DNA of 64,000 nucleotides from a virus (Duplodnaviria; Caudoviricetes): the IMG/VR virus record IMGVR_UViG_3300033074_000233, positions 1 through 64,000 of that record. One strand, 5' to 3'. Made by a program: the position numbers and the translations under genes. This document shows, in pieces, positions 4,490-21,877 of the stretch (position 1 is its first letter; each line of letters starts with the position of its first letter). Under the pieces are notes generated by a model, which worked only from the letters and a program-made list of their open reading frames with translations, did not search any database and had not been told where the DNA came from.

Positions 4490-6100
4490 TCAATTACGAG
4501 AAAACGTAGAACCTCCGCCACCTCCACCACCCATTACTGCGGCAATTCCCTGTCCACGGGCAGAAGATACCTGTGATCCAGAGAAGCCACCCCCAGCAAC
4601 AATAGCAGCCAGGCCTCCACCTCCGCTGCGTTTCCTTGTCTGTAGGAAATTAAGTACGATCTCATTATCCAACAGAAAGGTCGAGGCCAATACCACAGCA
4701 CGGAATAAATCATCCGTTCTATTTGTTCCCTTCACTACGCTGCGCTTGGAATCCTGTACGGTCAAGCATTGCATTAGCAAGTGGGCCGAAGGCTTGAAGT
4801 CGAAACTATTCGGATAGCCTTCACTGACTGGGCCAATGATTTGTTCCACCGGCATTTCCAGTTTCGGGAAGAATATACGCTCGCCTTCAAGGTAGGAACG
4901 GAACAAAAGGAAATCATCGTACTTGACGGAGTATTGTTCCGTGACCAAGTTCAATTTAACGTCCTTCTTTTTCTTACCGTGAATATCCGTTGTGTCGATG
5001 CCCTTGTTGAAGTCTTCTTCCAATTTATGCAACAGGAATAGGCTGTTCCAACGGTCGGCTACTAGATAACGGACGTTGAAGGCTTTAATCATTTCCTCAA
5101 TACAGAACTTAACCACGGCACTATGGTTAATTACGTTCTCGCCTTTCTTGGGAATAATCTCCATAATGGCGCTGTAAACCACGTTCTTATCTTCGCGGTG
5201 ACCGACAGCGATTGCGAAACTGTTGTCGGAGAATCCAGCGTCGATTGCCATGACGGACGCAGGCTGACTGGACATTGGGTAACACTTAACTTTGGCCGCC
5301 CGGAATATCTTTCCGTCCGCGTTACGTCTGTGGATATATTCATAGTCTACCTTGTTCTTAACTAGAGTGAAGGCCTTGTTGACAACTTCCTCGTTGCCAA
5401 TGAAGGGTGCTGCGGTGAGCGGAGGTTCAGCGCCATAGTCACGCGCAGCCGTCAGCGGACTACTGCTAAAGGCATTGGCGATCTCAGGATGCTTACGTGG
5501 GAACTTCGGGTTGATTTCCCAAGTAGGTGCGTGAACCGCAAGGATGGTTTTGCTATGCCTGTTGTTAGTCACCAACTGCATGATTTTATCTTGCACGTCG
5601 GATGGACTGGATACGTTCAGGGCGTAGGCAGAAGGCAGGTTGTTGTAACCCTGTTTCATCAGGTCGTAAGACGCGCCGCGAACGGTTAGCAGTGAACGGT
5701 CTAACGCCGTGTAAATGCCGTCTGCCGAAATGGTGATCTTGCCTGAGGCGTTCGCACTGGCATCGAACCAACCAAGTTCGTCGATTGCGTAGATATAACG
5801 GGTACGACCACGCAGGGTACGTTGGTTAGGAACGGACGGATACAGCATCAGTTTCCGGTGACGGTAACTAATGTAGGTGTCCATCTGCTTGTACAGTTCC
5901 TCACCGTACTTGTTGTTGTAGTGCTTCATCAGTTTGTGGTATTCACAGTTATGAACCTGAATACCATTGGCATAATAATTATGGTGGTCCTTTACCTCTA
6001 TGTCATAGACGTGCCTAGTACCTACGGGTTTTATGGAAGTCACCCTAGACACCCGTATAGGCTTACCGTCAATGATAACCTCTTGTACACTAGCATTCAT
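4490..6100 (-). CDS. terL: Terminase large subunit, C-terminal fragment, preceded by split-intein C-half
   Basis: First 51 aa are IntC (VYDIEVKDHHNYYANGIQVHN/C); then LRGRT, Walker B YAIDELGWF, motif III SSP, RNase H-type nuclease acidic motifs MAIDAG, ADRW, TDDLFRA. Confidence 0.9.
   Translation of the reverse strand: MNASVQEVIIDGKPIRVSRVTSIKPVGTRHVYDIEVKDHHNYYANGIQVHNCEYHKLMKHYNNKYGEELYKQMDTYISYRHRKLMLYPSVPNQRTLRGRTRYIYAIDELGWFDASANASGKITISADGIYTALDRSLLTVRGASYDLMKQGYNNLPSAYALNVSSPSDVQDKIMQLVTNNRHSKTILAVHAPTWEINPKFPRKHPEIANAFSSSPLTAARDYGAEPPLTAAPFIGNEEVVNKAFTLVKNKVDYEYIHRRNADGKIFRAAKVKCYPMSSQPASVMAIDAGFSDNSFAIAVGHREDKNVVYSAIMEIIPKKGENVINHSAVVKFCIEEMIKAFNVRYLVADRWNSLFLLHKLEEDFNKGIDTTDIHGKKKKDVKLNLVTEQYSVKYDDFLLFRSYLEGERIFFPKLEMPVEQIIGPVSEGYPNSFDFKPSAHLLMQCLTVQDSKRSVVKGTNRTDDLFRAVVLASTFLLDNEIVLNFLQTRKRSGGGGLAAIVAGGGFSGSQVSSARGQGIAAVMGGGGGGGSTFSRN
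5948..6100 (-). mobile_element. Split intein C-half (IntC, 51 aa) of terminase
   Basis: Blocks F and G ending His-Asn; +1 Cys at 5945-5947. Confidence 0.95.
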
Positions 6101-7283
6101 TTAGGCGCTCTCCTTTTTCTCCCATAATAAGGAGAGTGAATTTGTAGCCTTGTTTTCTGCAGGCCTGACGTTTCGCTCCTAAGGATTTAGCAACACTTGC
6201 GGTATAGGAACTCTTAACTTCTATTATTCGATTTTGAGAAACTACAAATATGTCAGGATGATAAATACGATCCTTACCTTTCCAGGTATATTTAATCGTA
6301 GGCATGTCTGACTCAAATCCACAACGTATGTCCTTAGGCTTTACGCCTTTTGTTTTTATTATGTAGTCAAGAGCCTGCGGCTCATAGCCCTGTACTTGTA
6401 CCTTTCTCTTTCCAAGATTATAGGCCTTAAAGGTGTAAGCACTTTTTAGGTTCTTCTCTAGGATCTCTTTATTCTGTAAGGCGTAGTCAACGCCGTAGCG
6501 TTCGCGCATAGTTGCTCGGCTTTTTGCCTTAACCTCAGGTCTTTGGTTGCTGTACTCTACTCCGTATTTACACATAGAGTTAAACCGCATTTTATCCGGA
6601 GCACACTTAGGACAGCCAGACTTTTTTAGTAGGTTTCCGGGCAAAACTTTCCAGGTATGACTACATACAAGGCATTTTGCCTTAGTGTATTTGTTCATGC
6701 CTGGGTAGCCACCAACAAGACAAATTTTCCTTTTCTTTAGTTTTGCCCTTCTATAAAAAATAGCCTCAGGCATTAGTCTAGCCTTAGATATCCTTTCACC
6801 CACAACGCACACGCAACTTATATTTCCGGTTATTAGTGCTTTTGGGCTAGCTCCTTTCTCCTTGCCACAGAGTAGGCAGGCTACACGAAAACGAGAGTCC
6901 GTTTTCTTAGATATAAGGCGAAAGTTTTTATTTTTCTTGAGTGCCTTAGTTACAGATACAAAGGTAGCGTTATGCCGCTCAATCCAGCCTTTACTCTGCG
7001 TAACCCTATAAACACCGGTGCATTTTAAGGAACAAGTCTCATTAAACGGACTGTCTGGATTGTCGCGTCTGTTAGTAGAAAGTTTCGTAACCTTTTTTCC
7101 GCATACTTTACACTCCGGATAGCCATTATCAACTATATAAGCAGCAGCCTTCAAAGGCAGAGTTTTACATAAACTTTCTAGGCGTTTGGCTACCTTCTCC
7201 TCAAGAAAAGGTCTTATGGCCTTGAGGCTTGGAGTACGTCCTGTAGTTGTACGCTGTTCTTCGAGTGCAGAGATAAGAGTCAT
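6090..7283 (-). CDS. Free-standing putative homing endonuclease (Zn ribbons, KYGV-type repeats, PD-(D/E)XK domain) between the terminase halves
   Basis: Multiple CxxC; KYGVEY/RYGVDY repeats; C-terminal VQGYE...YHPDIF...IIEVKS; AT-rich codon use unlike flanking genes. Confidence 0.85.
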   Translation of the reverse strand: MTLISALEEQRTTTGRTPSLKAIRPFLEEKVAKRLESLCKTLPLKAAAYIVDNGYPECKVCGKKVTKLSTNRRDNPDSPFNETCSLKCTGVYRVTQSKGWIERHNATFVSVTKALKKNKNFRLISKKTDSRFRVACLLCGKEKGASPKALITGNISCVCVVGERISKARLMPEAIFYRRAKLKKRKICLVGGYPGMNKYTKAKCLVCSHTWKVLPGNLLKKSGCPKCAPDKMRFNSMCKYGVEYSNQRPEVKAKSRATMRERYGVDYALQNKEILEKNLKSAYTFKAYNLGKRKVQVQGYEPQALDYIIKTKGVKPKDIRCGFESDMPTIKYTWKGKDRIYHPDIFVVSQNRIIEVKSSYTASVAKSLGAKRQACRKQGYKFTLLIMGEKGERLNEC

Positions 7284-7295
7284 ATTGATACCTCA

Positions 7296-7325
7296 CGTTG
7301 TTACACTTAAATTAGTGTAACAACG
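7296..7325 (-). promoter_or_regulatory. Perfect 12-bp inverted repeat enclosing the promoter-like motif, directly upstream of the endonuclease SD
   Basis: cgttgttacact-taaatt-agtgtaacaacg; motif at 7306-7317; SD GAGGT at 7290-7294. Confidence 0.75.
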
Positions 7326-7331
7326 CAAAGT

Positions 7332-8429
7332 TTACAAGGTAACAACTAAGTCATCTTCCGTTAGTTCTGAGACTTTTTTCCAGATAACCGTAGTCCTATC
7401 CTCAGATAAACACCGAACTTTGTGTTCGTCTGTCGCCACTAGCACCTGACCCGAGTCTAAAACTATTTCTTTGCACTCCTGTACCCCATTATCGAACAGG
7501 TGCTCTACTTTATTTGAGCCTTCGAAGGTAGCAACGCGCATACCAGGCTTAATGTATTCAATCGCTAGGGTGGTACCATCTTCTATAGTTATCTGAGTTC
7601 CTTCTGCAATGCAATACCACGTACTGTCGGCAATAGCATCAACAATCGGTGTCCACAACAGTTCCACTGCACCAGCAAAGTTCAGCGAAACGAACGTAGC
7701 CGTCAAGGTCACGTTAGATAGGCCGGTGAACATTTCTGCTGGACGCTGTAGTTTGAGGTATCTGTGGTTGATGTAGGCAACCAAGAAAGAAGTGAACAAG
7801 GACTTACCAGAACGCTGACCCGCACAAAAGGCCAACTCGGAGTAAGGCTTGAGGAGTTTCTTTTTGACAAACTCGCGCTTGGTTCCTTTGCACTTAGGAC
7901 ATACTCCGTGTTCCATGAGTTGGACAACATCAGGGAAGTTCTTCGCCTGAAAGCCAACGGGAATGTTACGAATGTCCTTCATCACCTTGCCCTTAGTACA
8001 AACAGGGCAATACTCGCCAAATAGTTTCAGCGCAATCCACATCTGTCTAGCAAAGGGCTTAATACCAGTGAAGCCCCACGTCCGATCAAAGCAAAAAGCC
8101 CAAAAATTGGGCATAGTTGGGATATCTCTGTCGTCCACTTTCAAGTCTTTTGGAACCGGGGTCTCATCATCCAAGACCTCATCCAGCACCTTCTCTAGGT
8201 CTAGTTCCTTTCTCGCTAGTTCCTTGCTATCCTTCAAGGCGAAAGGTGAAGGTGCGTATCCTGTCGTAGAATCAATTTCTCCGCCATCCTTGAACGGAAT
8301 ACCGTTAGCATCCACGATTGAGATTTTGTGGGCACCCATAGGCGACCACTTTTCACACTTGTATTCGGCTCTTTTATTTGCGTAAGTACACTTCAGGAAC
8401 TTACCACAAGATAGGCAACTGTCACTCAT
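7332..8429 (-). CDS. terL: Terminase large subunit, N-terminal fragment, ending in split-intein N-half
   Basis: Adenine-binding PFARQ, Walker A AGQRSGKS, Zn-finger inserts; last 93 aa are IntN (CIAEGTQIT...ATDEHKV...) then TAA. Confidence 0.9.
   Translation of the reverse strand: MSDSCLSCGKFLKCTYANKRAEYKCEKWSPMGAHKISIVDANGIPFKDGGEIDSTTGYAPSPFALKDSKELARKELDLEKVLDEVLDDETPVPKDLKVDDRDIPTMPNFWAFCFDRTWGFTGIKPFARQMWIALKLFGEYCPVCTKGKVMKDIRNIPVGFQAKNFPDVVQLMEHGVCPKCKGTKREFVKKKLLKPYSELAFCAGQRSGKSLFTSFLVAYINHRYLKLQRPAEMFTGLSNVTLTATFVSLNFAGAVELLWTPIVDAIADSTWYCIAEGTQITIEDGTTLAIEYIKPGMRVATFEGSNKVEHLFDNGVQECKEIVLDSGQVLVATDEHKVRCLSEDRTTVIWKKVSELTEDDLVVTL
7335..7613 (-). mobile_element. Split intein N-half (IntN, 93 aa) of terminase
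   Basis: Block A CIAEGTQI; block B TDEH; acidic end SELTEDDLVVTL. Confidence 0.95.
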
Positions 8430-9049
8430 TATTTCCTCACATCAGGCTTGAAGTATTTTTCTATCAGTACCTGGCGCAAGGCTGGTGTTAATTGGAGTTT
8501 GGTGCATAGGAAGTCGAAGGTCTTCAACCGTATTGCATCCTGAAACATAGTCTGCATAAGGCTAAAGGACATTTCCTCGACCTCAGACTCTGTAATCAGT
8601 GCGACGGTTTGACGGGCACGTTCTACCGCGTCACCTAATGCTACCTCAATGGGTGCGACTTCTTTGATGAAGAATTGCTCGATGGAATCCATGTGACCCT
8701 TAAGGTCGCTGACAAACTCAGCACGAATACGCTTGTCCACTTTCACCACGTCCGAGACCAACGTGGCTACCTTCTCCTCTTCGGTTTTGAGCGCAGACTC
8801 CCAGTCCCTTCTCAAGGATTCAAGTGTGCGCTCTTCCTTTCGGATAAACTTGTTGCTGATATTACGCCGTACAAGTACGGGATTACTTACGTCTAAGACT
8901 TCTGCTTTCTTTACTGGCTTCTTAACCCGAAAGAAAGAAGGCTCGAAGTCCTCACCTACTCCATCGTACATGCGATCATCTACGGCAAACTTGCTGGACC
9001 TTTCATTACCTGTTATTGCTCCGAAAGGTAATGTCTTTTTGTCAACCAT
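8429..9049 (-). CDS. Hypothetical helical protein
   Basis: 206 aa, coupled to terminase N-fragment by a TAATG overlap. Confidence 0.7.
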   Translation of the reverse strand: MVDKKTLPFGAITGNERSSKFAVDDRMYDGVGEDFEPSFFRVKKPVKKAEVLDVSNPVLVRRNISNKFIRKEERTLESLRRDWESALKTEEEKVATLVSDVVKVDKRIRAEFVSDLKGHMDSIEQFFIKEVAPIEVALGDAVERARQTVALITESEVEEMSFSLMQTMFQDAIRLKTFDFLCTKLQLTPALRQVLIEKYFKPDVRK

Positions 9050-10379
9050 CGTCGTCTCCTACGTCTCCTAGGTATTCGCTATCGGCTTCTTCTTCCTCGT
9101 CAGGACGAACGTCCGTTACGTTTGGATTATCTAAGTCGAATACCGTGTAGAGATCATCGTCGTAGCCAAGTTGGAAGTTGAACAGCAACTGGTTACGTGC
9201 TTTCAGTTGTCGAATGTCCATTACCTTGTTGTCACGGGTTTCTTTCGTAGCAACCCAGAACCAAGCGTTGTTGGCATGTTCTTTGATAGCACCAGAATAG
9301 CGTACTTCACCTTCGGCATTCACCTGCGCCAGCAGTATCACAATGGTGTTGTTGTTCTTCGCCCAAACTTTGCAGGCACGAGCCACGTCACCAAGTTTCT
9401 GCCAAGCATCATCGCCACCTACGTTTTTCAGAAGGCTGATATAGTCGATGATGATTACCTTGAATCCATAGGGCTTGAGCATCAGCAAGGCTTCGTCGTA
9501 GGTAATGTCCTCGTACGGAGCAAAGATAGTCAGGCGAAGATCATCTTCTTTCAGGTCATCCATGAAAGCCTTGTAGGACTTGACAATCTTTTTCTTTTCT
9601 TCGTCGGTGCACTTCTTCTGTTTGATCTTGGACAAGGGCGTCTTACTTATGTTGGCAGTAAGCCGTTCCATTGTCTCGTCTTCATTCATTTCCAGCGGAA
9701 CATAGGCGACGCTCTCACGTCCAAGTTTTGCCATGTTCTGAGCAATCTGGAGGGCCAACGAAGTCTTACCACCACCAGTGCTACCACCAAGTACGAACAG
9801 AGAACCGTATGCAATACCACCGTTCTTCTCATCAAAGGCCTTGAAGCCAGTGGGCACAAGGTTAGGCTTGTCGCCATTAAGGATACGCTTAACGATTCCA
9901 GCAGAGTTGTTGCCCTTACCGATGTGGAATATCTGTGTCTGGTGGTCGGCGCGTGTTCTTACTTTGGCAAGGCTATCAGCCGTTGTCTCAAGGAGTTTGT
10001 CAACGTCAACCTTGTCTTCCTGCAGGGACTTGTTGATGTTCTCACTGAGGAAGTACATATTACGCGCTTGGTAATACTTGTGCAGTACCTTCAAGGCCTT
10101 GCGTGACAGTTTCTCGTCCGCAATAGGAACAGCCTCAGACTTGCGGAGGAGTTTGCGATTCGTTTCGCTCAGTACAGGGTCGCTGCACACTTCGGCGTAA
10201 GTAGGAATCTCACCGTCACGGCGCACTATGGAGAAGATACGCTCGATGGCCTCACGTGTCGGATCATGGTGGAAGTGCTCTTTGGTTACTTGTGCCAGCA
10301 GTTTGTTCTGGTAACGCTTGTCCGATTCGCAAATGGACTTGACTACAAGCATTTCCAGTTTCGCGTCATACAAGCGCAT
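9042..10379 (-). CDS. dnaB: Replicative DnaB-family helicase
   Basis: Walker A GGSTGGGKT, H1a PLEM, Walker B IIIDYISLL, H3 LLAQVN, H4 SGAIKEHAN, KAR finger; DnaB-like N-terminal domain. Confidence 0.92.
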   Translation of the reverse strand: MRLYDAKLEMLVVKSICESDKRYQNKLLAQVTKEHFHHDPTREAIERIFSIVRRDGEIPTYAEVCSDPVLSETNRKLLRKSEAVPIADEKLSRKALKVLHKYYQARNMYFLSENINKSLQEDKVDVDKLLETTADSLAKVRTRADHQTQIFHIGKGNNSAGIVKRILNGDKPNLVPTGFKAFDEKNGGIAYGSLFVLGGSTGGGKTSLALQIAQNMAKLGRESVAYVPLEMNEDETMERLTANISKTPLSKIKQKKCTDEEKKKIVKSYKAFMDDLKEDDLRLTIFAPYEDITYDEALLMLKPYGFKVIIIDYISLLKNVGGDDAWQKLGDVARACKVWAKNNNTIVILLAQVNAEGEVRYSGAIKEHANNAWFWVATKETRDNKVMDIRQLKARNQLLFNFQLGYDDDLYTVFDLDNPNVTDVRPDEEEEADSEYLGDVGDDDG

Positions 10380-10836
10380 TAACTTCTCCTATATCTGTAC
10401 GTACAAGGATTCTAGGTATCAATATGGACACGTGGTAGAATCCTGTTGACATTGGACCAACAATTCCACCAGTCCATTCAGGATTATCCAGCGAGGGATC
10501 GCATACTATTTTGTCACCACAGCATACGACGTTGTGGTTCGTACCGTTCTTTGACTTACCACCAAGCAAGTAGTAGGTATCTTTGAAAGAGTACCCAAGC
10601 ATAGTCAATAAGGGTTCGAGTTCCAAGTCATAAGCCATCTGGATTTCTTTTAGGCCTTGCGTTGCTAGCCACTCGTCCATAGCCTTGTTCCAGTCGTCAT
10701 CGTTCTCGTAGTGAATACCAAAGTTTGGTACGCTGTCCCTGTCAAGGTCAAGAATATTGGCCAAACAGGTACGAGAGCAGTCTCCATATATACCTTCGTC
10801 CGGCTTATGACGAAACGCTTGTTTCTGAAATCTCAT
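10366..10836 (-). CDS. Hypothetical protein, possible papain/C39-like fold
   Basis: GDCSRTCLANILDL ... HNVV ... DP arrangement of Cys/His/Asp. Confidence 0.5.
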   Translation of the reverse strand: MRFQKQAFRHKPDEGIYGDCSRTCLANILDLDRDSVPNFGIHYENDDDWNKAMDEWLATQGLKEIQMAYDLELEPLLTMLGYSFKDTYYLLGGKSKNGTNHNVVCCGDKIVCDPSLDNPEWTGGIVGPMSTGFYHVSILIPRILVRTDIGEVNALV

Positions 10837-11507
10837 AACTCTACCGTTTTCTTTACTAGATTGGATGTAAGGAAAGCACAGGACGTCAGGCTCATGTGCA
10901 TCTTGGTGTTGAAGAACGTAAGCGGATCAGTGCCAGCAACTACAACGATACGCGGAATGTTGGAGTGCACCTCAAGGATATCGCGCAACTTCTCCAATTT
11001 GGAAGCCGAAGACTCCATCGTTATGTTGGACAGGATCAGCATACTCGGATGGTCAATCTCGCCGCTGTGCTTGCCAATGATTGGATTATCAAAGCCACCG
11101 ACAAGGGTGTGCCACAGAGGGAGGCCTCTGCCTTTGAGTGCCTTGCGCTGTTTCGCAGGTGCTTCTTTGTTACCGTGAGCCATCACAGCATTCATCATAA
11201 TGTGTGCGGCAAACAACTTGGCCCGAAGGTCGTTGGGCTTACCTGCAATACAGCACAGGTACGGACCATAGAAAGGATTCTCCATGATCTTTGACACGCC
11301 TTCGTTTTGTTTCTGTTTACTCACACGTTTTGGCTTGAGACCCTGAACCTCACTGGTGAATGAGCACAGGGCTTCATCCAGAGCAAACGGATGAATGCTG
11401 AACACTTGCTTGGTCATTCCGCGCGTAACCATCTGCTTGATGGCGCCAGTGTTACGCTTGTCCAAAAGAATGCGAACACCCTTTTTCTTTTCGCTTTTTT
11501 CTACCAT
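10833..11507 (-). CDS. Putative degenerate DnaC/DnaA-like AAA+ (helicase loader-like) protein
   Basis: Near dnaB; degenerate P-loop (IAGKPNDLRAK) and Walker B-like strand (MLILSNI); 224 aa. Confidence 0.4.
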   Translation of the reverse strand: MVEKSEKKKGVRILLDKRNTGAIKQMVTRGMTKQVFSIHPFALDEALCSFTSEVQGLKPKRVSKQKQNEGVSKIMENPFYGPYLCCIAGKPNDLRAKLFAAHIMMNAVMAHGNKEAPAKQRKALKGRGLPLWHTLVGGFDNPIIGKHSGEIDHPSMLILSNITMESSASKLEKLRDILEVHSNIPRIVVVAGTDPLTFFNTKMHMSLTSCAFLTSNLVKKTVEL

Positions 11508-11564
11508 GATAGGTACTCCTGTGTCGCGTACTTTACAGTCTCTAGAATCTTCCTACACCAGAGT

Positions 11565-11897
11565 TTAGGGCTTGAAGTATGTATCAAAGTAAGGAAAGGG
11601 ACCGTCTGTTTTAGGATCAATTTCCTTAAAGGTAAGGCCTTCACCATAATGAGTCAATTCATTATTCTTGGTTACTCTAATCTGAACTTCGTTTAGAGCA
11701 TCCAACTTAATTACTAGACCACAGTTGTTACACACGTATAGGGTGTAGATAGCGTCTAACGATTCATCTTCCTTAAATCCGTTGTAATGTGCGACTAATT
11801 GTGCAGTATCGCGTATTCCTTTTTGAGCGCAAGTAGGACATTGTAGAACTCTACAGTTTTCTTGTACATCACTTTGGAGACTAAGTTTCTTTTTCAT
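11565..11897 (-). CDS. Zinc-ribbon hypothetical protein
   Basis: CPTC...CNNC, 110 aa, AT-rich. Confidence 0.6.
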   Translation of the reverse strand: MKKKLSLQSDVQENCRVLQCPTCAQKGIRDTAQLVAHYNGFKEDESLDAIYTLYVCNNCGLVIKLDALNEVQIRVTKNNELTHYGEGLTFKEIDPKTDGPFPYFDTYFKP

Positions 11898-13477
11898 TAG
11901 AATCTTCCTACTTTCTTTCTAGGCTCGGCAGCACTAATGGTTCCGCCGGGCAAACGCTTGGAAATTTTCAGGACAGAACCTTTTTTGACGTACTTGTTTG
12001 CAACAGCCCAGTTCTCTTTTGATACACGGAACTTCATGCTGGCAATTCCTGGCTTTCCGAACAGACAGTTACGCAGGCAGCCTTTGCTGAATCCGAAATC
12101 GTCAAGGAAGAAACGAATAGTCGGCTCAGGTTTTCCTGGCACTGGCGTCAAGATACGCGCTGTTTCTTGACGAAAGTTTGGTGGATTGCTGATAGGCATT
12201 ACCTCGTACAGCGTGTCCCAACGAGGCACGTTAATACCACGCTGGACCATCCGTCGAATACCAATGATTACCTTTGTCTTGTACTTACGAGCATCCATGA
12301 TGACCTTCTTACGGTGATCTTTGGATTTCATAAGCGATGCAGTAAACCCTACGGCAATCTTCTTACCCGCACGGTCGTTAATCATCTTGGTGAGCAACTT
12401 GACGTGGTCAACTGTCATAACGGGAATGACAATGGATCTTCCCTGTTTCAGGTCGTGCATCACCCAATCTACGATAAGGTCGTTGCGCTTTTTCTCCTGT
12501 GCAAGGAAACGATAGGCATAGGCAAGTACCTTGTAGTCATAGGTCGTGCTCACTCCTGTCTCAATGAACTCCACGTTTGGCGTCAGCGACTCTACTTCCG
12601 CTTTAGCCGTAACTGGACCAATGATGTGCTCAAGGATGAAGTGCATGCCATCTTTACGCTCGGTCGTGCCTGTGCAACCTATGCGGTGCTTCGCATGAAA
12701 CGCATTCACAACACGGCTGAAACAGGTAGCAGGCGTCTGATCAACCTCGTCGATAAGCAACAGGCCGAAGTTGCGTTTGATCTTGTCTAGCCGCTTCTTA
12801 CCTTTCTTAGTGATGAATTGCTGGTACGTAGCCAGGGCAATGTCGTATCGGTCGAAGTCTTCCATCTTCTCCACGATACCACAAATCTTTTTGCCTTCAA
12901 ACTCCTCAATGTCCCGTACATTGGTCAAAGCCTTCTGGCTATCAGAGCCACAAATCGTTTCGTAGAACTGGGTCAGATAGTCGTACTGGCTAGCCAGAAT
13001 CAAAACCTTAAGGCCCATTTTGCAAAACAACTGCGTTAGCATTACGGTCTTGCCAGAGCGCGGTGGGGCATCCAAAATACCATAGCCCTTGGCGAGCAAC
13101 GCATCGCAGGGCTTCTCTTGATAGTCGTGAAGTTTTCCAGTGAACTTGATCTTGTACCTGAACTTAGGTGCCGCCCGTTTGTCCTTGATCTTGAGTTTCT
13201 TTAGGCGTGGAACAACGGCCTTGATGTCCTTCCGATTACCAACGGAAAGACCGTAGTATTCGACGCCCTTGACCTCCTTCTCGTTGTACAACTTGAAGTT
13301 GCCAAGAAAGCCAGGGCAGGTGTCACACACTTCACTATGTCGATCAGGTCGATAAGGACATGGCGCACACTTTTCCTCAGCATATACGGCTTTCTGGAAG
13401 CGTGCCTTCAATTCGTATTCATCGACCTGACTAACTGGAATGTAAACGCGGTCAGTTATTACTATCGCGTTGCTCAC
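11897..13477 (-). CDS. SF2 helicase (UvsW/type III restriction Res-like)
   Basis: Q motif LHDYQ, Walker A APPRSGKT, LIDEVD, TGTTERKDG, QRGINVP, QETARIL. Confidence 0.9.
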   Translation of the reverse strand: MSNAIVITDRVYIPVSQVDEYELKARFQKAVYAEEKCAPCPYRPDRHSEVCDTCPGFLGNFKLYNEKEVKGVEYYGLSVGNRKDIKAVVPRLKKLKIKDKRAAPKFRYKIKFTGKLHDYQEKPCDALLAKGYGILDAPPRSGKTVMLTQLFCKMGLKVLILASQYDYLTQFYETICGSDSQKALTNVRDIEEFEGKKICGIVEKMEDFDRYDIALATYQQFITKKGKKRLDKIKRNFGLLLIDEVDQTPATCFSRVVNAFHAKHRIGCTGTTERKDGMHFILEHIIGPVTAKAEVESLTPNVEFIETGVSTTYDYKVLAYAYRFLAQEKKRNDLIVDWVMHDLKQGRSIVIPVMTVDHVKLLTKMINDRAGKKIAVGFTASLMKSKDHRKKVIMDARKYKTKVIIGIRRMVQRGINVPRWDTLYEVMPISNPPNFRQETARILTPVPGKPEPTIRFFLDDFGFSKGCLRNCLFGKPGIASMKFRVSKENWAVANKYVKKGSVLKISKRLPGGTISAAEPRKKVGRF

Positions 13478-14043: not shown

Positions 14044-14576
14044 AGGTTTTTACCGTTGCCTACAATGTTCTCACGCTGGTAGATCAAGGTCAGCGCGTCC
14101 AGGGTATGTTTTAGGTTCCACGCCGCTTGGTCTATATCATCTATCATTAACCTTGCCATCTCGATTATCCGTTCGTAGTCGGCAATCTTGTAGTGCGCCA
14201 ACTGAAACAGGTTCTTGATGTAGGCCTTGCGATCACCAATGGAACGTCCAGGTATGTAGTCACGATAGGTTGTGCTGGTATGCGTTTCAATTCGATCAGT
14301 GGCCGCGTTCAAAAGGCGATTGGCTTTCTGAACCGTGACCATAATCTCCACGCAGCGTGAACGATAGGCCGAGCCTTGAAGACCTGCTGCAATGATCTTG
14401 TGAACGTCAGGTGTTTTCAAGTGCAAATCGCGTGTTTTCCGCGACTTGTGCATAATCTCTAGTTCGCTAACTAAATTGTCAAATTCGGCTAGGCCCTGGC
14501 AGTATTTCAGGATGTTTTTGAACTTGGCGTAAGCCTCATCCTTTCTTAGGAGAGCCTTTACCTCTTTACGAGACAT
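14040..14576 (-). CDS. Hypothetical helical protein (replication/recombination cluster)
   Basis: 178 aa, tightly packed, core-like codon usage. Confidence 0.7.
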   Translation of the reverse strand: MSRKEVKALLRKDEAYAKFKNILKYCQGLAEFDNLVSELEIMHKSRKTRDLHLKTPDVHKIIAAGLQGSAYRSRCVEIMVTVQKANRLLNAATDRIETHTSTTYRDYIPGRSIGDRKAYIKNLFQLAHYKIADYERIIEMARLMIDDIDQAAWNLKHTLDALTLIYQRENIVGNGKNL

Positions 14577-15020
14577 TTAGAACTCCAGTTTCTCTTTGAT
14601 GTTCTGGTTGTAGCCAACAGTAACCATGCTTCCATAAACGCCCATGTTGTAGAGCATAAGGTCGCGCAGTTTGTACTTTAGTTGAAGCGTACTCTGGGTT
14701 TCTCTCAGGTCCTTCAACTTCAAATCAGGCAACTTAGAGGAGTACACGCACAGGTAGTTGAAGGCCGATGAAAACTTCTGGCTCGCTGAATCTAACATAT
14801 AGCCTACGGTTATTCCCTTAGGCGTCTGCCCTTTCAATTCGTACACGTCCAGCATAGGCAAGTCGATCTGGTCAATACGGACGGCGTATACTTCCGTGTA
14901 ATGACTCAGTTCGTTCTCGGTGTATATCCAGTAGTGTGACTTGCCGCAGCGAACACCTTGAATTGTGCCTTTAACTACTCTGGATGGTATCGTTATCTTC
15001 TTGTTGTGAAATCGTTTCAT
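14577..15020 (-). CDS. Hypothetical protein
   Basis: 147 aa, abuts neighbours. Confidence 0.7.
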   Translation of the reverse strand: MKRFHNKKITIPSRVVKGTIQGVRCGKSHYWIYTENELSHYTEVYAVRIDQIDLPMLDVYELKGQTPKGITVGYMLDSASQKFSSAFNYLCVYSSKLPDLKLKDLRETQSTLQLKYKLRDLMLYNMGVYGSMVTVGYNQNIKEKLEF

Positions 15021-15032
15021 CCTGCAAACTCC

Positions 15033-16124
15033 TCACAGAAGAATGCAGGAATAAATGTACTCGACACCATCGACCTTCGTTTCGATCATAAGGCACTTGT
15101 TAGGAACTACCATAATGGTTATGGTAGGACTCTTGGCTCGCAGCAGGATATCACCGAGCACTTGTGGATGTACGTTCACAGGTATCTTCATGTCCTTTGA
15201 GTCTTTGCCTTTGAGCGTGTCACTGACGGAGCCCGAGTTGGTCTTGGTACGAATACGCAGAGAGTCTTCCTTGATCAGGAACTCTACAGGTACGTTCTCC
15301 TCGTACACGGACATGAGGTTGTCCAATGTCTTCGCCAGTTCTGCCGTCTTGACAGTGATGCAGCCCGAAGACTTCTCACCCTTCAACTGCTTGATGAGGC
15401 CCTTGGCATCGTCCAGGGAGATTGCCTGATCGAACTGCTCAAGAGGAACGCGATACCTAAAGGACTCATTCGAGGCAAAGATCGAGGACTCCGTTACAGA
15501 CAACTTGTACGCTTGGTTCTTGGCAATGGAGTTCATCATAGGAATAGTGCCTGCAGGCAGACACATAAGAGCGTCCGACTTGAACTTGGTCGCCGACATT
15601 CTGGCATAGGCCATGTGCGAGTCATTGGCGCAGGAGAACTCCGCACCCTTGCTGCTGAGTTTTATGAATACTGGAAGCGGATTCATCTTGCCTAGGTGCA
15701 CGTCATTGATCGACACAGCAGGTACTATGGTGTTAAGAGTGGCAATGAACTCGTCCGTGAAGTTGAGGTTGGTTGCCTCAGTCTCCATGGAAATCTTTTC
15801 GTCAGGCAGCGTTACGAAATTGCCTGAGTAGGATTTGCTCGACGGAGCCTTGAAAGCCACGCAGGCATCCTTCAATTCCATTTCGAGTTCTTTACGATTC
15901 TTCAACAGACCAACAAGGACTTCCGGCTTTACCGTGAACAGGCCCTTTTCGGATATCTTGGCATCCTTAACACGGAGAGCAATTACCTTGCCAGCGTTCT
16001 GCGCTGTTACTACCAGACCTTTGCTGGCTTCAAAGGTGAGCGATTGAACCTGCTCGACACCTTTGGTAATGTCCTTGATTATGTCCGTCAGTTCCTTTGC
16101 GTTAACTACGATTTTCATATTCAT
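15033..16124 (-). CDS. dnaN: DNA polymerase beta-type sliding clamp
   Basis: 363 aa (DnaN size); three repeated strand-helix units (MKIVVNAKEL..., NLNFTDEFIATL..., CITVKTAELAKTL...); C-terminal YIYSCILL strand; replication cluster. Confidence 0.7.
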   Translation of the reverse strand: MNMKIVVNAKELTDIIKDITKGVEQVQSLTFEASKGLVVTAQNAGKVIALRVKDAKISEKGLFTVKPEVLVGLLKNRKELEMELKDACVAFKAPSSKSYSGNFVTLPDEKISMETEATNLNFTDEFIATLNTIVPAVSINDVHLGKMNPLPVFIKLSSKGAEFSCANDSHMAYARMSATKFKSDALMCLPAGTIPMMNSIAKNQAYKLSVTESSIFASNESFRYRVPLEQFDQAISLDDAKGLIKQLKGEKSSGCITVKTAELAKTLDNLMSVYEENVPVEFLIKEDSLRIRTKTNSGSVSDTLKGKDSKDMKIPVNVHPQVLGDILLRAKSPTITIMVVPNKCLMIETKVDGVEYIYSCILL

Positions 16125-16147
16125 TCCTACCTAAGAGGTTGTGCACT

Positions 16148-16552
16148 TTATTGGCAATGTCTAATACGGGCGTCTGCGAACTTGGCCGTTTTAATTATCT
16201 CAGAGTAGTAAAGCATATCCTGAGATTCTCCGAAGACTACTACATCTGGTTTTGAGTGTCCTCGCAGGGTGTAACGAGACCCCGAGTCAGAGCCGTCTAT
16301 AAAAATACAGTGTACGGATACTGGGGCTGTTTGTCTATAAAGATCGAAGTTTGATTTACTGTTTGCTATAACGAAAACTATATTTGGGGGTACCTGATTT
16401 TTACCCCGTAGAGTTTCCAAGAGGCCCGAAGTTCCGAAACGAATCAGGATGTAGCCTACGAACAGTGCTGCTAACAAGACAGGTATAGCATAGTAGGTAG
16501 TAACCATAGTATCAAAATTCATCACACTTTCTCCTAGTAGTTTGTGTATCAC
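16148..16552 (-). CDS. Hypothetical membrane-anchored protein
   Basis: Hydrophobic segment YAIPVLLAALFVGYILI. Confidence 0.6.
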   Translation of the reverse strand: MIHKLLGESVMNFDTMVTTYYAIPVLLAALFVGYILIRFGTSGLLETLRGKNQVPPNIVFVIANSKSNFDLYRQTAPVSVHCIFIDGSDSGSRYTLRGHSKPDVVVFGESQDMLYYSEIIKTAKFADARIRHCQ

Positions 16553-17334
16553 TTTACAGTTTCACGCACGGTAATGCGGGACAAATATCCTTCAAGAATG
16601 GAGACAGCCATCAGGGGACCTGCATCACCTGTGTACTTCTGTTTCCACTTTCTCCACTTGGATACCAGATAGATCGGGTGCAAAATCAACGTACCGTCTA
16701 CGTGCAATGGAGCCATGCTATAGACGAAGGCGCCAGAGTCCTTCACGTTGTCATACAGGGTCTCAGCGTCACTCCAGAAGAGGACGTAGTATTTGCCCTT
16801 GTAGGCCAAGTGAAAATAGATATCCTTGTTCTTTGAAGCCAGCACAATGCGGCTACGCGATGACATGGTTAGGTACGCGAGCATAAGGCTCCACGAACCT
16901 TCAAGTTTGTCGATAATCCTTTTCTTGACCAGTAGTGCGTAGTTAGCCTCAACGTCATTCAGGTCTGGGTGCTTGACACTATTCAACTTCACTAGGAGTT
17001 TGCTAGGTGCAAATCCTGGCGCGTCGATTTCCTTGTCATTCATCCCAGTAAATGCCGAGACCTCATCGTTGTTGGATATAGAGCCGTTAAGCCAGGTTAC
17101 CGCAGTGCTTCCACGCGAAGGAACTGCTATGGAATACATTTCGTCGCTCTGGCTACTGGCCAAAAGGAAAACACCAGGACTCAAGTCGGTAATCTCACCG
17201 AGTTGTTCCGTTTTGACTAGACTCTTGTTAAGCGAGCAGTGGGTAATCCGCTTGTCGCCATAAACGCTCTCCAGCAGCGACCTTAGGTCGGTGAGGTCGT
17301 CTGGCTTACTGTGAAGAATGAGACAGCCTAACAT
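16549..17334 (-). CDS. Degenerate class II glutamine amidotransferase (Ntn-hydrolase)-like protein
   Basis: WLNGSISN (cf. HNGxIxN) and KLEGSWSL (cf. LEGxFAL); lacks N-terminal catalytic Cys. Confidence 0.5.
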   Translation of the reverse strand: MLGCLILHSKPDDLTDLRSLLESVYGDKRITHCSLNKSLVKTEQLGEITDLSPGVFLLASSQSDEMYSIAVPSRGSTAVTWLNGSISNNDEVSAFTGMNDKEIDAPGFAPSKLLVKLNSVKHPDLNDVEANYALLVKKRIIDKLEGSWSLMLAYLTMSSRSRIVLASKNKDIYFHLAYKGKYYVLFWSDAETLYDNVKDSGAFVYSMAPLHVDGTLILHPIYLVSKWRKWKQKYTGDAGPLMAVSILEGYLSRITVRETVK

Positions 17335-17341
17335 AGATCAC

Positions 17342-19273
17342 CTATGATTCGTAGTCGCTGAGGATTGGGTAATTTTCATCCAAATAGGTCTTCAACTTGG
17401 AGTTGTTCCAGTCACGATAGACCTGCTTGTACGCCGTGTCATAATCAATCTGCGGATACAGCGTACAGTGGTCCTTCAGTGTACGCTTAATGCACTCATC
17501 CAGACTGAATGCTTTACCCTTGAACGGACCCTTAGGCCCATGTATCTCCTCATCAAATCCTTTGAGCGACCAGTCCCATTTGTACGTCTTGTCCTGTGAC
17601 GCACCAAACTCCATTTCAATCTCACACGGCACCGTGAACTTCAGGTCAAAGTGCTTGTCGTAGTAGCCCTGAACACCCATAGTTGCACACCACTGCAGAA
17701 TCTGGGCAGTAGCCAGAGCCATATCAAAGGTGGCTGAGGTGAAGATGGAATCATGCACCATCACCTCAATACCAATAGGGCAGTGCGTGTCTTCGGTCGT
17801 TAGCCTTTTCAGTTTCAACAGGTACTCATAAATGTGCTGCTCAAACAGGCGAGCACCTGTATGACCAAAGTCTGCGCCCATGCCTTGAATCGGAGAGTTC
17901 TTGGCTCGACGATCCATTGCACCTGCGATACCTTTGTCACCAGTCAAGTGGCCGAACAAGTGACGACGACGGCCCAAGGCAGACTTGGCAAACAAGTGCT
18001 TACGGCCAAATTCGGCTGTCCAGTTCAACCAATCCGATGCTACACGGAATCGTTTGAAGAATCTGTCATACAGGTCTTTGGCAAAGTCGGCGGACTTCCT
18101 CAGGTCTTTGGCCAAAGTCTTATAGGACTTACCGTAAATTACACCGAACGCTACACCTTTTACTGCATCACGCATTTCGTCCGTGATCTGGGAGAAGTCC
18201 ACACCAAAGAAGAAATTCACGTTTATACGGTGAATGTCACCCTTGTTACCCAGTTCTATTGCAAACTTTGCCAGGCCTGTCTTAGCCCACTTCTGACGGA
18301 GTTTACGACCAATAGCAAATACACCAGCGAGAACCGTGTCACCGCTGATGATGGACCATACACGAACTTCGTGTGCGCTATAGTCCATCTTAATGATAAT
18401 GCACCCAGGCGGCGGTGCGAACGTGCGCTTAATGTGCTTCGCCATCTCACCGCGTTGAGGTACCTGCTGCAACGAGGGATCACTACTATTGGATCGTCCA
18501 GACAACACCTTAAAGAAGCCATAATTAGGACGCATACGACCGTCGATCTTACCGTCATCGGAGTCGATCTTCTTGGCGAAAGCATCCACGTACGAGGACT
18601 TGATCTTCTTGGCCTTCTCCAGCGTATTGAGTAGGGCTACTTCTGGAACTTCCTCGTACTTCTTCTTAAAGAACTTACCCAGACTTGGCTTCTTGGACTT
18701 CTTGCTTAGTTCAGGCTCAAGATCGAGCACGTCCACATACATAACAATCTTGTGCGCGGGCTTGCTTATATCGAAGATTCTAGGTGCCTTGTTGAACAAT
18801 CCTTTTCCAACAGGTACGTTCATATCGGCCAGCAGGATTTTATTGGCTTTAGCCGCAGCGTCTGTTGAGTTAAGTTGGTTCGTTATATCCTGAATAGCCT
18901 TTGAGATTGGAGACTCGCGTGTCTTCAAATAGGATAGGTACTTGCGGTCCATTGCAACACCACGTTGTTCCATACTGGCGAATACATGGATGTTGTTGGA
19001 CATTTGTCCAACGGAAACACGAATATGATCCTTAGAATAGGACTGGGTAACACCTTGATCACGGTATACCAGGTTCTTGGCACGCTCACGCTGCTTGTCA
19101 TGTATCGCAAGAATTGCCTGCGTATCCATAGCACAGTTATGTACTAAAACGGGGTTCTCACTAATTTCAGTAGAGACAAAGAGGTTATGATTATCCTCTA
19201 CTTCTATGTCACAGACCGTGGGTGTGTTCCCAAGGTTCGTGATACGTTTAATAACTACCGTTGCGGTGCCCAT
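17342..19273 (-). CDS. polA: Family A DNA polymerase, C-terminal fragment, preceded by split-intein C-half
   Basis: IntC (CDIEVEDNHNLFV...VLVHN/C); SGRSNSSDPSLQQVP, motif A MDYSAHEVR, motif B RDAVKGVAFGVIYG, NSPIQG, motif C VHDSI. SD GAGGT lies inside the antisense endonuclease ORF. Confidence 0.93.
   Translation of the reverse strand: MGTATVVIKRITNLGNTPTVCDIEVEDNHNLFVSTEISENPVLVHNCAMDTQAILAIHDKQRERAKNLVYRDQGVTQSYSKDHIRVSVGQMSNNIHVFASMEQRGVAMDRKYLSYLKTRESPISKAIQDITNQLNSTDAAAKANKILLADMNVPVGKGLFNKAPRIFDISKPAHKIVMYVDVLDLEPELSKKSKKPSLGKFFKKKYEEVPEVALLNTLEKAKKIKSSYVDAFAKKIDSDDGKIDGRMRPNYGFFKVLSGRSNSSDPSLQQVPQRGEMAKHIKRTFAPPPGCIIIKMDYSAHEVRVWSIISGDTVLAGVFAIGRKLRQKWAKTGLAKFAIELGNKGDIHRINVNFFFGVDFSQITDEMRDAVKGVAFGVIYGKSYKTLAKDLRKSADFAKDLYDRFFKRFRVASDWLNWTAEFGRKHLFAKSALGRRRHLFGHLTGDKGIAGAMDRRAKNSPIQGMGADFGHTGARLFEQHIYEYLLKLKRLTTEDTHCPIGIEVMVHDSIFTSATFDMALATAQILQWCATMGVQGYYDKHFDLKFTVPCEIEMEFGASQDKTYKWDWSLKGFDEEIHGPKGPFKGKAFSLDECIKRTLKDHCTLYPQIDYDTAYKQVYRDWNNSKLKTYLDENYPILSDYES
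19136..19273 (-). mobile_element. Split intein C-half (IntC, 46 aa) of DNA polymerase
   Basis: Ends VLVHN; +1 Cys at 19133-19135. Confidence 0.93.
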
Positions 19274-20350
19274 ATGAAAATTACCTCAGAACAAAAGAAG
19301 TTCCTGTCTCAGTATCAGAATAAGTCGAAAATAAACTGGTACGAAATTAAGCGAGTGTACCCTGAAATACATGACACTTTACAAGACAAAGCCCAGAAGA
19401 AAAAAGTAAGGCCAAACAAATTACTGTATATTCTTGTATTTGGACACCCCAAATGTGCAGGTACTAACTGTGAAAGCACTAATTTAGGATTCAAGAACTT
19501 TAAGCGGGGTTTCGATAAGTTCTGCTCGAAGAAGTGCGCTAATAGTTCGCCTGAGTCTAATGCTAAGCGTGAGCAGACCTTCCTAAAAAACTACGGTGTT
19601 ACTAACCCAGGTAAGTGCGAGAAAATCAAAAGGCAGCGTCGAAAAACTATGGTGAAAAGGTACGGTGTCGAATACACGGCTCAGTCCCCGAAACTGCGTA
19701 AGAAAATGGAAAACACCTGTTTAGAGAACTACGGCGTGACCTCTCCTATGCAGTCTAGCGTGGTTAGAAAACGCTGCGAGGCTACGTCAATAGAACGCTA
19801 CGGAGTTGCAAGCCCAATGTCAGATCCAAGTGTCCAAGCAAAGTACAAAGAAACCTGCCGAAAAAAGTATGGAGTAGAACATCCGTTTCAGGATCGTGAG
19901 GTTTTTGAGAAGCAACAGAAGTCAGGTTTCAGCCTAAAGAAGATAACTATAGCAGGAAAGAAATACCAACTTAGAGGCTATGAGTCTGATGCCGTTATAT
20001 ATCTGCATAAGAATCTTAGAGTAAAGCCAGAGCATATACTAACTACATCGAAAGATGGGCTTCCAACGATACGATGGACAGACAAGAAGGGCAAAGGTCA
20101 TGTGTATCATCCTGATCTTAAAGTTAAGGTTAAAGGAAAGTGGTTCTTGGTTGAGGTAAAGAGCGATTACACCTTAGGACTCCGCAGTGACGGTAGCAAG
20201 ACCATGTTTTACGTTGCAAGACGCAAAGCCCAAGCGTGTATTGACGCTGGTTATAGGTTTAAGTTACTCCTAGTGCAGAAAGGAAAGGTCTCTGTTGTTT
20301 CTGACTTCCACGAAACTAAACGAAAGGACCTTATATCACGGTACTGTTAA
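19274..20350 (+). CDS. Antisense free-standing putative homing endonuclease between the polymerase halves
   Basis: Only convincing plus-strand gene. Five YGV repeats; C-terminal LRGYE...YHPDL...LVEVKS; paralogue of 6090-7283. Start taken as ATG 19274 (ORF is open from 19187). Confidence 0.85.
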   Translation: MKITSEQKKFLSQYQNKSKINWYEIKRVYPEIHDTLQDKAQKKKVRPNKLLYILVFGHPKCAGTNCESTNLGFKNFKRGFDKFCSKKCANSSPESNAKREQTFLKNYGVTNPGKCEKIKRQRRKTMVKRYGVEYTAQSPKLRKKMENTCLENYGVTSPMQSSVVRKRCEATSIERYGVASPMSDPSVQAKYKETCRKKYGVEHPFQDREVFEKQQKSGFSLKKITIAGKKYQLRGYESDAVIYLHKNLRVKPEHILTTSKDGLPTIRWTDKKGKGHVYHPDLKVKVKGKWFLVEVKSDYTLGLRSDGSKTMFYVARRKAQACIDAGYRFKLLLVQKGKVSVVSDFHETKRKDLISRYC

Positions 20351-21877
20351 TACCTTAATTTTCTCTCCGTCAATCAGGTCCTTAACGCGGACGTATTCTT
20401 GTCGTGTCTCTGACCAAACTTTGTGGTCCTCTGTAAGACGTATCGTACCCCCCTCGTACTCGATCTCAAACATATCCTGAGTAGTCGTGTGTGTAGACAC
20501 GTTTAGACAGTTTTTGTACTCGGTCTTGTTCGTTTCGTGGTTGAATGAAAGGACTTTGCCATAAGCATCTTTATCTAGAACAAAGTCTTTCAGTTTAACT
20601 TTTCCCGTCTCCGTTACGACGTAGGCTTCTGGATCTATGCAGTAGTCTTGGAAGTCCGGATCAAATAGATCAGTTGCTTCCATGTTGCCCCGATCCTTCT
20701 TGGAGAAGCCTGCGGTATAGTAAAAATCGTTACCGTAGGCACAGGTTACCTGTGCCAATCCACCCATAGGGTACTCAGTGTCTTCTAGGAACCGTAGGGT
20801 TTCATCGTGGGCATGCTCGCCTGCTTGAACGTCATACACTGGCCAGTACATGAACGGAATACCTAGAGCCTGTTTGACCTGTGTTATGTCAAACTTTGCG
20901 TTGAAGGCGATCAGGTATTTCTTGTAGTTCATATCCACCTTACGCATGAAGAACTCGCGTAGGCGTTTCTGTATGTATGCAATTTCCTTAGGCGAGAAAG
21001 GGGTATCCTTGTGTAGAATAGGAACCACAAAGCCCTTGTCCTTGTCAACAGAGAACTGGACGATCAGGAGTTTGTTTTTGATGCGGTTCAGGTTTGCTGT
21101 TTCTGTATCGAAGGCAATACGATCAGCGTTTTCGATAATCTCCATCATACGGTCGAACTTCTTGATGGTGTCGATCAGGTGTGCCTTAACCTGAACGTCA
21201 ATCGCCCATGGAAGTTTGCCGTGGATGAGAGAGGAGATATTGCGAGAGAAATAGCCGAGAACGTAAGCGGCCTTGAGCACACTTTCGTTATCGTTGTCAT
21301 CTTCCTCGTCAAGATTCTTAGGCGGTGTCAGGGAATCAGCGTAGTCGATTGTTGAACAGACCTTACGCTTCTTACCTCCTAATTCAACCTTGTGTACCCA
21401 GCCCATCTTGCAAATGGCATTCTCAACCTTGTGATTGAGTAGAAACTTGGTTGGATTATCGCCTACCAAGAGAATATGGGTTGGGTCATACTTCTCGATG
21501 AAGCCTCTTACACGCTTGGCTGCTGTGGAATGCGACTTCGCTCTGTCATCCGGGTCCAGATGGTAGTTCTTGAAGAAATTGAAGTTGACCGCTGCGAAGG
21601 CGACGTCCTTTTCCTCAAGACCATAGGGTTCGGCTATGGACTCTGCGTACTCATAGCAGTTCTGGAGTGCAGTAAGGGATACACCAGAGAGGAGAGCACC
21701 GTTTTTCAGGTCCTCAGTAGATACGTGTTCCAGTACGAACAGGACACGCTTTTTCGCCCGCTTCCAATTCTTCTCAATTGGAAGGGTAAGATTGAATGGC
21801 TTGCAGTCTTTGGAAAGACGAGCCCAGTAATCAGGAACCTCATTCTGAAATGAGATTCTTGCTATCGACTCAAACAT
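20336..21877 (-). CDS. polA: Family A DNA polymerase, N-terminal fragment (UDG-like domain plus 3'-5' exonuclease), ending in split-intein N-half
   Basis: ExoI IAFDTET, ExoII AFNAKFD, ExoIII Tyr right before the intein; last 101 aa are IntN (CIDPEAYVVTETG...LTEDHKV). Confidence 0.9.
   Translation of the reverse strand: MFESIARISFQNEVPDYWARLSKDCKPFNLTLPIEKNWKRAKKRVLFVLEHVSTEDLKNGALLSGVSLTALQNCYEYAESIAEPYGLEEKDVAFAAVNFNFFKNYHLDPDDRAKSHSTAAKRVRGFIEKYDPTHILLVGDNPTKFLLNHKVENAICKMGWVHKVELGGKKRKVCSTIDYADSLTPPKNLDEEDDNDNESVLKAAYVLGYFSRNISSLIHGKLPWAIDVQVKAHLIDTIKKFDRMMEIIENADRIAFDTETANLNRIKNKLLIVQFSVDKDKGFVVPILHKDTPFSPKEIAYIQKRLREFFMRKVDMNYKKYLIAFNAKFDITQVKQALGIPFMYWPVYDVQAGEHAHDETLRFLEDTEYPMGGLAQVTCAYGNDFYYTAGFSKKDRGNMEATDLFDPDFQDYCIDPEAYVVTETGKVKLKDFVLDKDAYGKVLSFNHETNKTEYKNCLNVSTHTTTQDMFEIEYEGGTIRLTEDHKVWSETRQEYVRVKDLIDGEKIKVLTVP
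20339..20641 (-). mobile_element. Split intein N-half (IntN, 101 aa) of DNA polymerase
   Basis: Block A CIDPEAYV; block B TEDH; followed by TGA. Confidence 0.93.

Follow-up and report, generated by a model that had tools for sequence, protein, structure and literature searches.

Judged from its sequence, a jumbo phage genome carries two genes, the large terminase gene terL and the family A DNA polymerase gene polA, each of which is interrupted by a split intein of the standard Cys/Cys kind, with a gene for a nuclease of the Pfam family DUF7487 between its halves. The DNA in question, hereafter the window, comprises the opening 64 kb (64,000 nucleotides, nt) of IMG/VR record IMGVR_UViG_3300033074_000233, a 216-kb PaBG/Y3-like virus record (215,992 bp) whose terminase is 37 to 42% identical to those of phages NCTB, PaBG, Lu11, Y3, and the Dickeya JA phages. 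We consider it likely that two selfish cassettes, both of the fractured-gene type but independent of each other, coexist in this intein-rich genome. The fractured-gene layout with split inteins was published in 2009 (Dassa et al., PMC2677866) for gp41-1, gp41-8, NrdJ-1, IMPDH-1, NrdA-2, and a terminase. The window is a real double instance of that layout and not the coupled, undescribed system that an earlier note on this DNA had proposed: the layout is published, the two inteins fall into separate clades, and relatives with one cassette lack the other.

Each cassette consists of an N-terminal intein half (IntN), a stop codon, a nuclease gene, and a C-terminal half (IntC), and the flanking exteins rejoin in register. 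At terL, the TerL-N open reading frame (ORF; 8429-7332, minus strand) encodes the 272-amino-acid (aa) N-extein of the large terminase (7614..8429; PHROG 17415), with a Walker A motif and a C-terminal Trp-Tyr, and terminates in a 93-aa IntN (7335..7613, minus) that begins with Cys1, has a net charge of -9, and belongs to a family whose profile has gp41-1 as its best split-intein match in the PDB. The TerL-C ORF (6100-4490, minus) opens with a 51-aa IntC (5948..6100) ending in His-Asn, followed by Cys+1, a residue rare in empty alleles, and by the 485-aa C-extein (4490..5947). Between them lies the gene for nuclease e1 (6090..7283, minus; 397 aa), which has a zinc-finger-like N-terminal part and, by Pfam, a DUF7487 PD-(D/E)XK domain; it stands 48 nt from TerL-N, and its 3′ end overlaps the start of TerL-C by 11 nt. 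All three genes are co-stranded, as in fractured genes of the Dassa type. The joined exteins (757 aa) align with intact terminases, over the full length and without a gap at the junction in the case of the nearest relative's protein, to which they are 49% identical. A locus search using the TerL-C protein alone gave no match.

At polA, the PolA-N ORF (21877-20336, minus) encodes a 412-aa N-extein (20642..21877), identified by Pfam and by alignment of the joined product, whose last residue is the ExoIII tyrosine of the proofreading domain, and terminates in a 101-aa IntN (20339..20641, minus; Cys1, net charge -5) from a family whose profile best matches NrdJ-1 in the PDB. The PolA-C ORF (19273-17342, minus) opens with a 46-aa IntC (19136..19273) in which the loop from block F to block G is extended; the 597-aa C-extein (17342..19135, minus; assigned by the same two means) then begins with Cys+1 of the ExoIII motif and continues into the polymerase domain. 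Joined, these exteins (1,009 aa) align over their full length and without a gap at the junction to the intact protein of the nearest relative (56% identical). Here the one-strand layout fails: the DUF7487 nuclease e2 (19274..20350, plus strand; 358 aa; Pfam) is antisense, as are the nucleases of ten related alleles. The 3′ end of e2 overlaps the PolA-N stop by 15 nt, and the start codons of e2 and PolA-C stand back to back. The first e2 codons carry the Shine-Dalgarno sequence of PolA-C on their opposite strand, and e2 also provides the IntN stop.

Both intein pairs hold the full catalytic set (Cys1, block B Thr and His, block F Asp, terminal His-Asn, and Cys+1), as expected of standard class 1 inteins, and these residues are conserved throughout both families. 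The earlier note had read a common Tyr/Cys junction and similar block B and IntC cores as features linking the pairs. The junction residues are present. Tyr at position -1 of polA, being the ExoIII tyrosine of proofreading, is invariant in all aligned alleles of this insertion site (site a), and at terL the residue is a minority variant, found in just 3 of 22 split alleles, of a position occupied by Phe in 17 of these 22 and in 60 of the 71 empty alleles; we therefore rejected Tyr at -1 as a common feature. The two block B sequences do resemble each other more than is typical (of 46 other inteins, 1 has the strict six-residue pattern and 31 a loose form), yet the pattern varies inside each lineage. 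Identity between the two inteins is 25% in IntN, 38% in IntC, and 29% overall, in a genome whose six inteins span 25 to 39%, and profile-profile comparison of the terL and polA IntN families gives 21%. In the intein tree, 12 terL-site inteins and 9 polA inteins form separate clades; an approximately unbiased (AU) test rejected the window's two inteins as sisters (p = 3e-39) and weakly rejected a single TerL-plus-PolA clade (p = 0.035). By these comparisons, the terL and polA inteins are unrelated lineages, and the Tyr at -1 is a coincidence.

The remaining four inteins of the genome are contiguous and lie at 1-1683, at 111558, in recA (116030), and in nrdJ (125771). The first is an endonuclease-bearing intein in a 561-aa ORF on the minus strand, whose host is probably the prohead protease.

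As the earlier note had stated, one endonuclease family interrupts both inteins: e1 and e2 both belong to DUF7487 and resemble each other chiefly over the C-terminal 164 aa (37% identity). The domain has invariant PD and E-x-K motifs and a confidently predicted fold (pLDDT 95). Foldseek returned no match at E 0.001; in structure comparison, the best match was the N-terminal nuclease of Tn7 TnsA (PDB 1t0f; Z 8.5, rmsd 2.9, 103 residues aligned), ahead of Vsr (6.2) and I-Bth0305I (5.9). By motifs and structure, the nuclease is thus of neither the GIY-YIG nor the Vsr-like type. Identity to TnsA is only 16%, and unlike TnsA the proteins here have no TnsC partner and carry N-terminal zinc-finger-like or repeat modules instead. 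The nucleases group by host gene. In their tree, e2 belongs to a supported antisense polA clade (98/91) and e1 falls in a poorly resolved part with terL and free copies; e1 and e2 were rejected as sisters (p = 0.008), so that the phylogenies for which the earlier note had called separate both the inteins and the nucleases.

The family is large (5,721 clusters at 50% identity) and is not confined mainly to inteins, with 15 to 21% of copies inside them and ∼80 to 85% outside. When sampling started from the nuclease, intein halves flanked 15 of 70 assessable clusters, or 8 of 63 with terL excluded. Among the 27 DUF7487 copies of 40 genomes picked via terL, 4 sat in split inteins, 2 split polA without an intein, and the others were free-standing, in many cases next to the putative tail tube gene. 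Against a chance expectation of ∼1.5%, which is a rough assumption for copies that are not independent, DUF7487 has by these counts invaded split inteins repeatedly and with modest enrichment. The split inteins it occupies belong to at least eight host-gene types (terL, polA, SF2 helicase, gyrB, recA, nrdA, and two others), and the same intein lineages are also filled by HNH-like or Vsr-like genes or by no nuclease. The earlier suggestion that the family either targets intein DNA or repeatedly splits inteins thus survives as repeated entry; targeting is disfavored at terL, where only 1 allele in 94 is contiguous. The earlier note had also named two findings that would speak against its proposal: we did see unrelated intein lineages and separate nuclease groups, but a lack of enrichment inside split inteins we did not see.

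The allele survey bears on whether these cassettes move. Among 94 alleles of the terL site, 71 are empty, 22 are split (a class overrepresented through having been searched for directly), and 1 holds a contiguous mini-intein, for which ancestral and re-fused origins were not separated by a tree test (p = 0.20). Split alleles show a near-random scatter across the host tree, requiring 18 changes versus a shuffled mean of 19.1, at least 15 of them forced by strong branches, and their placement as a single clade is rejected (p = 2e-51). Host and IntN identity are weakly correlated (r = 0.19), as illustrated by pairs with 34% host and 67% intein identity or 73% host and 43% intein identity. This patchy distribution and the incongruence of intein and host trees fit homing. 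In empty alleles, the +1 residue is Lys, Gln, or Arg in 55 of 71 cases and Cys in 1 of 71, and Cys+1 is present in every split allele for which the IntC was seen; in the cases compared, the residues that follow resemble those of empty sisters. The terL cassette carries its own Cys+1 and therefore probably homes as a unit while split, which is the simplest reading of these patterns. Evidence that split cassettes stay mobile looks new to us as a detail; a literature search, in which most subscription journals lay outside coverage, found no paper on split-intein homing in jumbo phages.

The polA intein lineage was found at three polA sites, and the antisense cassette at two of them, ∼60 to 70 codons apart; no contiguous-intein alleles were seen at polA sites a and b. 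Compared with a 97%-identical strain, dS is 0.8 to 1.1 in the IntN and nuclease of the polA cassette and 0.26 to 0.46 in flanking genes, a two- to threefold difference, and it is low (0.15, from few sites) in IntC. In the same comparison, dN/dS is 0.06 for e2, indicating strong purifying selection, and 0.05 for IntN.

The two cassettes are not linked in relatives (labels of the form G002 or L013 are ours): terL is split but polA intact in G004, polA is split but terL is not in G038 and G039, and both genes are empty in the nearest relative, G002. Contig 3300025288_000012 was considered as a second genome with both genes split and was ruled out, its terL intein being contiguous. The 1,877-aa terminase of that contig carries three contiguous inteins (L108-L110 and L094), and its genome has at least 12 intein matches and two nuclease-less split inteins in polA and the clamp loader.

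Signals within the cassettes suggest when the nucleases are made. A seven-base motif ending in TAATTT is intergenic in 13 of 32 instances versus 6.2% expected (p = 2e-8), precedes structural genes, and on this distribution is probably a late promoter; counts from a scan for sigma-70 promoters and terminators were at chance level. One copy (7315-7309, minus) is in the loop of a predicted RNA hairpin (7289..7330, minus; z-score -6.5) that would mask the ribosome-binding site of e1. Similar hairpins occur at three related terL loci and are weak or absent at two. A putative late promoter of e2 lies antisense inside the IntC loop, in Glu-Ile-Ser codons (19161..19167, plus), as suggested by positional conservation: the motif has the identical position in 9 of 10 IntCs with an antisense nuclease and in 0 of 3 without one, and a nuclease-less split polA allele has lost it through a synonymous change. 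The placement of a putative e2 promoter within polA IntC looks like a new detail, as does the presence of one such antisense cassette at two polA sites. No late motif directly precedes terL-N, which shares one co-oriented gene run with polA.

From these observations, the following course can be proposed. The halves would be translated separately and, given the intein chemistry, trans-spliced into full TerL and PolA. By the T4 and Aeh1 precedent, the nucleases would be made late, e1 once the promoter in the loop fires and frees transcripts from the hairpin that hides its ribosome-binding site, and e2 from its own antisense promoter inside IntC. In a mixed infection, each nuclease would cut cassette-free alleles, and the whole split cassette would be copied in, as the phylogeny suggests; at terL it would replace one variable codon and supply its own Cys+1. 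Cross-splicing would be kept low by the distance between the intein lineages and by a folding interface particular to each extein pair, not by timing or opposite charge.

Several points weigh against this account. The promoter motif was inferred solely from its distribution. The single empty terL allele with Cys+1 (L013:9959-12202) is sister to the split allele P0055, with an N-extein 93% identical, and may represent either precise cassette loss or a preadapted target; repeated loss through recombination with empty alleles could also yield the observed scatter. Nuclease trees use ∼115 columns, and one clade of all intein-linked copies was retained at p = 0.07. Charge offers no explanation of specificity, either: opposite polarity, a candidate basis for orthogonality, was not seen, since both pairs combine an acidic IntN with a basic IntC start.

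An alternative, corresponding to step II of the Dassa model, is that DUF7487 is an intein-targeting family that cuts intein DNA and turns contiguous mini-inteins into split ones without moving into empty genes. The spread of DUF7487 over split inteins of so many host genes would fit this, as would occupancies (4/27 starting from genomes and 8/63 for non-terL clusters starting from nucleases) above the rough 1.5% expectation, the existence of contiguous mini-inteins of both lineages (L108 and L283), and the association of one antisense nuclease clade with the polA intein at two sites. However, most copies are free-standing, some split polA without any intein, and Vsr-like and HNH-like genes occupy the same niche; the contiguous alleles that would serve as targets are too rare at terL and were not encountered at the two polA sites, and the null against which enrichment is measured is itself coarse. 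We regard this explanation as unlikely. We give still less credence to a domesticated, coupled system in which the splits are kept to time replication versus packaging or in which TerL-PolA chimeras are tolerated or used. The cassette contains the sole late motif in the vicinity of terL, which means that TerL-C may be made mainly late, and G004 has a split helicase besides its split terL, both with DUF7487; but the splits are unlinked among relatives, late control through a hairpin and a promoter is how homing endonucleases usually regulate themselves (PMC2988022), and the chimeras would combine an ATPase part with a polymerase, with no plausible fold.

It is similarly very improbable that, as in Aeh1 NrdA, the halves assemble unspliced through intein parts that act only as interaction domains, or that the nuclease gene is removed at the RNA level. 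Unspliced assembly has a precedent (PMC3045599), and in three relatives (L286, L288, and L308) polA is split elsewhere without inteins, so halves can work unjoined. Conserved catalytic residues in both families, the low IntN dN/dS, and the position of the polA intein within the ExoIII motif itself argue the other way. As for removal from RNA, an Rfam scan of window positions 1-30000 found no group I or II introns or other Rfam families, and the polA locus leaves no room for an intron. The independent selfish cassettes thus remain our preferred explanation.

Coexistence of two split inteins raises the question of cross-splicing. The earlier note had held that the pairs must be either orthogonal or separated in time; orthogonality is very probably needed, whereas separation in time is unlikely. 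By analogy, cross-splicing between the terL and polA pairs is likely to be low by default, because distant split inteins were mostly orthogonal in published tests (15 of 16 in PMC7090010, gp41-1 and NrdJ-1 included). LCGC14, which is 35% identical to Aes, showed no cross-splicing with Aes-derived CLm (PMC12707363), and cross-reactivity of DnaE inteins is unexplained by charge alone (bioRxiv 10.1101/546465). Timing is an unlikely safeguard, because polA and terL-N are in one co-oriented run and terL-N has no late motif directly ahead of it.

Six other genomes (G004, G015, G038, G039, L292, and L103) have two or three split inteins each, and such multi-split genomes look like a new detail; the L103 and L292 gyrB pairs were read from single contigs, and only the IntN half of the L103 helicase lies within the DNA covered. 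In L103 (SRR28867352), two split inteins from a single lineage, with halves 53% and 40% identical, link the parts of a three-ORF PolA (L103:10001-15738); an antisense DUF7487 gene sits in one and a Vsr-like gene in the other, making this a sharper orthogonality case than the window. An SF2 helicase ORF of the same contig (20310-21446) ends in a further IntN. In L292 (3706-7322), gyrB is intein-split with an antisense DUF7487 gene, and it adjoins a gyrA that bears an intein as well as a split polA. Where two or three split inteins reside in one genome, orthogonality becomes testable in natural sets. A more speculative and rather doubtful idea is co-option of the split cassettes, with the late promoter of the terL cassette gating terminase maturation by trans-splicing and coresident split inteins, including close relatives such as the L103 PolA pair, being selected for mutual orthogonality; if so, such phages would be a source of naturally coevolved orthogonal intein sets.

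Comparison with known systems places both loci close to published ones. As in the 2009 set (PMC2677866), IntN, a free-standing nuclease gene, and IntC occupy an essential phage gene at the standard split point, IntN (93 to 101 aa) and IntC (46 to 51 aa) fall inside the published size ranges, and relatives have nuclease-less split alleles; terL in addition shares the 48-nt spacer, the hairpin with late promoter, and a nuclease overlapping the IntC start. The differences are that polA has interlocked gene ends in place of the hairpin and overlap, that its nuclease is antisense and its host a family A polymerase, that the nuclease is a TnsA-like PD-(D/E)XK enzyme where the earlier ones were GIY-YIG or Vsr-like, that the terminase intein is split at the standard site and not atypically, and that whole-genome context reveals co-occurrence and horizontal scatter. 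In T-even phages, free-standing homing endonuclease genes (Aeh1 mobE, segB, and I-TevI; PMC2988022) likewise have a hairpin over the ribosome-binding site with a bypassing late promoter, and embed signals for the neighboring gene; their promoter motif and nuclease fold differ, and here a split intein rescues the host gene. Actinobacteriophage inteins with antisense or out-of-frame nucleases (bioRxiv 10.1101/2025.01.02.630785) also pair an intein with a separate-frame nuclease, with phylogenetic signs of joint movement, but there a nuclease of the LAGLI-DADG, Vsr-like, or endonuclease VII-like type is housed in a contiguous intein, and the paper nowhere uses the word “promoter.” The jumbo phage MIJ3 (PMC6892783) resembles the present case in having a fractured DNA polymerase in a complete genome and a contiguous mini-intein in a relative, and differs in its family B polymerase, its HNH nuclease, and the single split intein reported.

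The presence of TnsA-like PD-(D/E)XK nucleases inside inteins looks new: this class is missing from the list in a 2025 survey of intein nucleases, and our literature search, with most subscription journals outside its coverage, found no paper on them. No new kind of system is needed to explain the findings. Split inteins are commonly described as decay intermediates; the terL cassette is apparently still spreading as a unit and bringing along a +1 nucleophile absent from its target. This has a bearing on the way inteins arrive at new sites. The polA cassette binds intein and nuclease to each other by shared signals and is present at two sites. The two Cys+1 pairs and their ∼30 relatives are, moreover, candidate protein ligation tools.

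Further DUF7487 genes and related nucleases were encountered along the way. A third member in the window (53986..54924, minus), an internal control outside inteins, is free-standing beside a putative tail tube gene; DUF7487 directly adjoins a putative tail tube gene also in L296, L306, L307, L316, and L318, marking a second insertion hotspot. In L288 (1380-5676), L308, L286, and L287, a DUF7487 gene or another insert splits polA near the polymerase domain without an intein. An ORF at 31545-32486 (minus) of the window combines a DUF7487-type N-terminal repeat module with an HNH-like C-terminal domain, suggesting module shuffling among nucleases, and at 214280-215800 (minus) of the genome, a 503-aa nuclease-like gene has zinc-finger repeats, a Vsr-like core, and an extra C-terminal domain. 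In five related phages (L277, L279, L280, L281, and L282), a clamp-loader-like gene is intein-split, with a Vsr-like nuclease in either orientation or none. Finally, in L143-L148, L150, L164, and L166, a DUF7487 gene lies between the halves of a split intein in what is probably a class I ribonucleotide reductase; the +1 residue there is Gly, unfit as the usual nucleophile.

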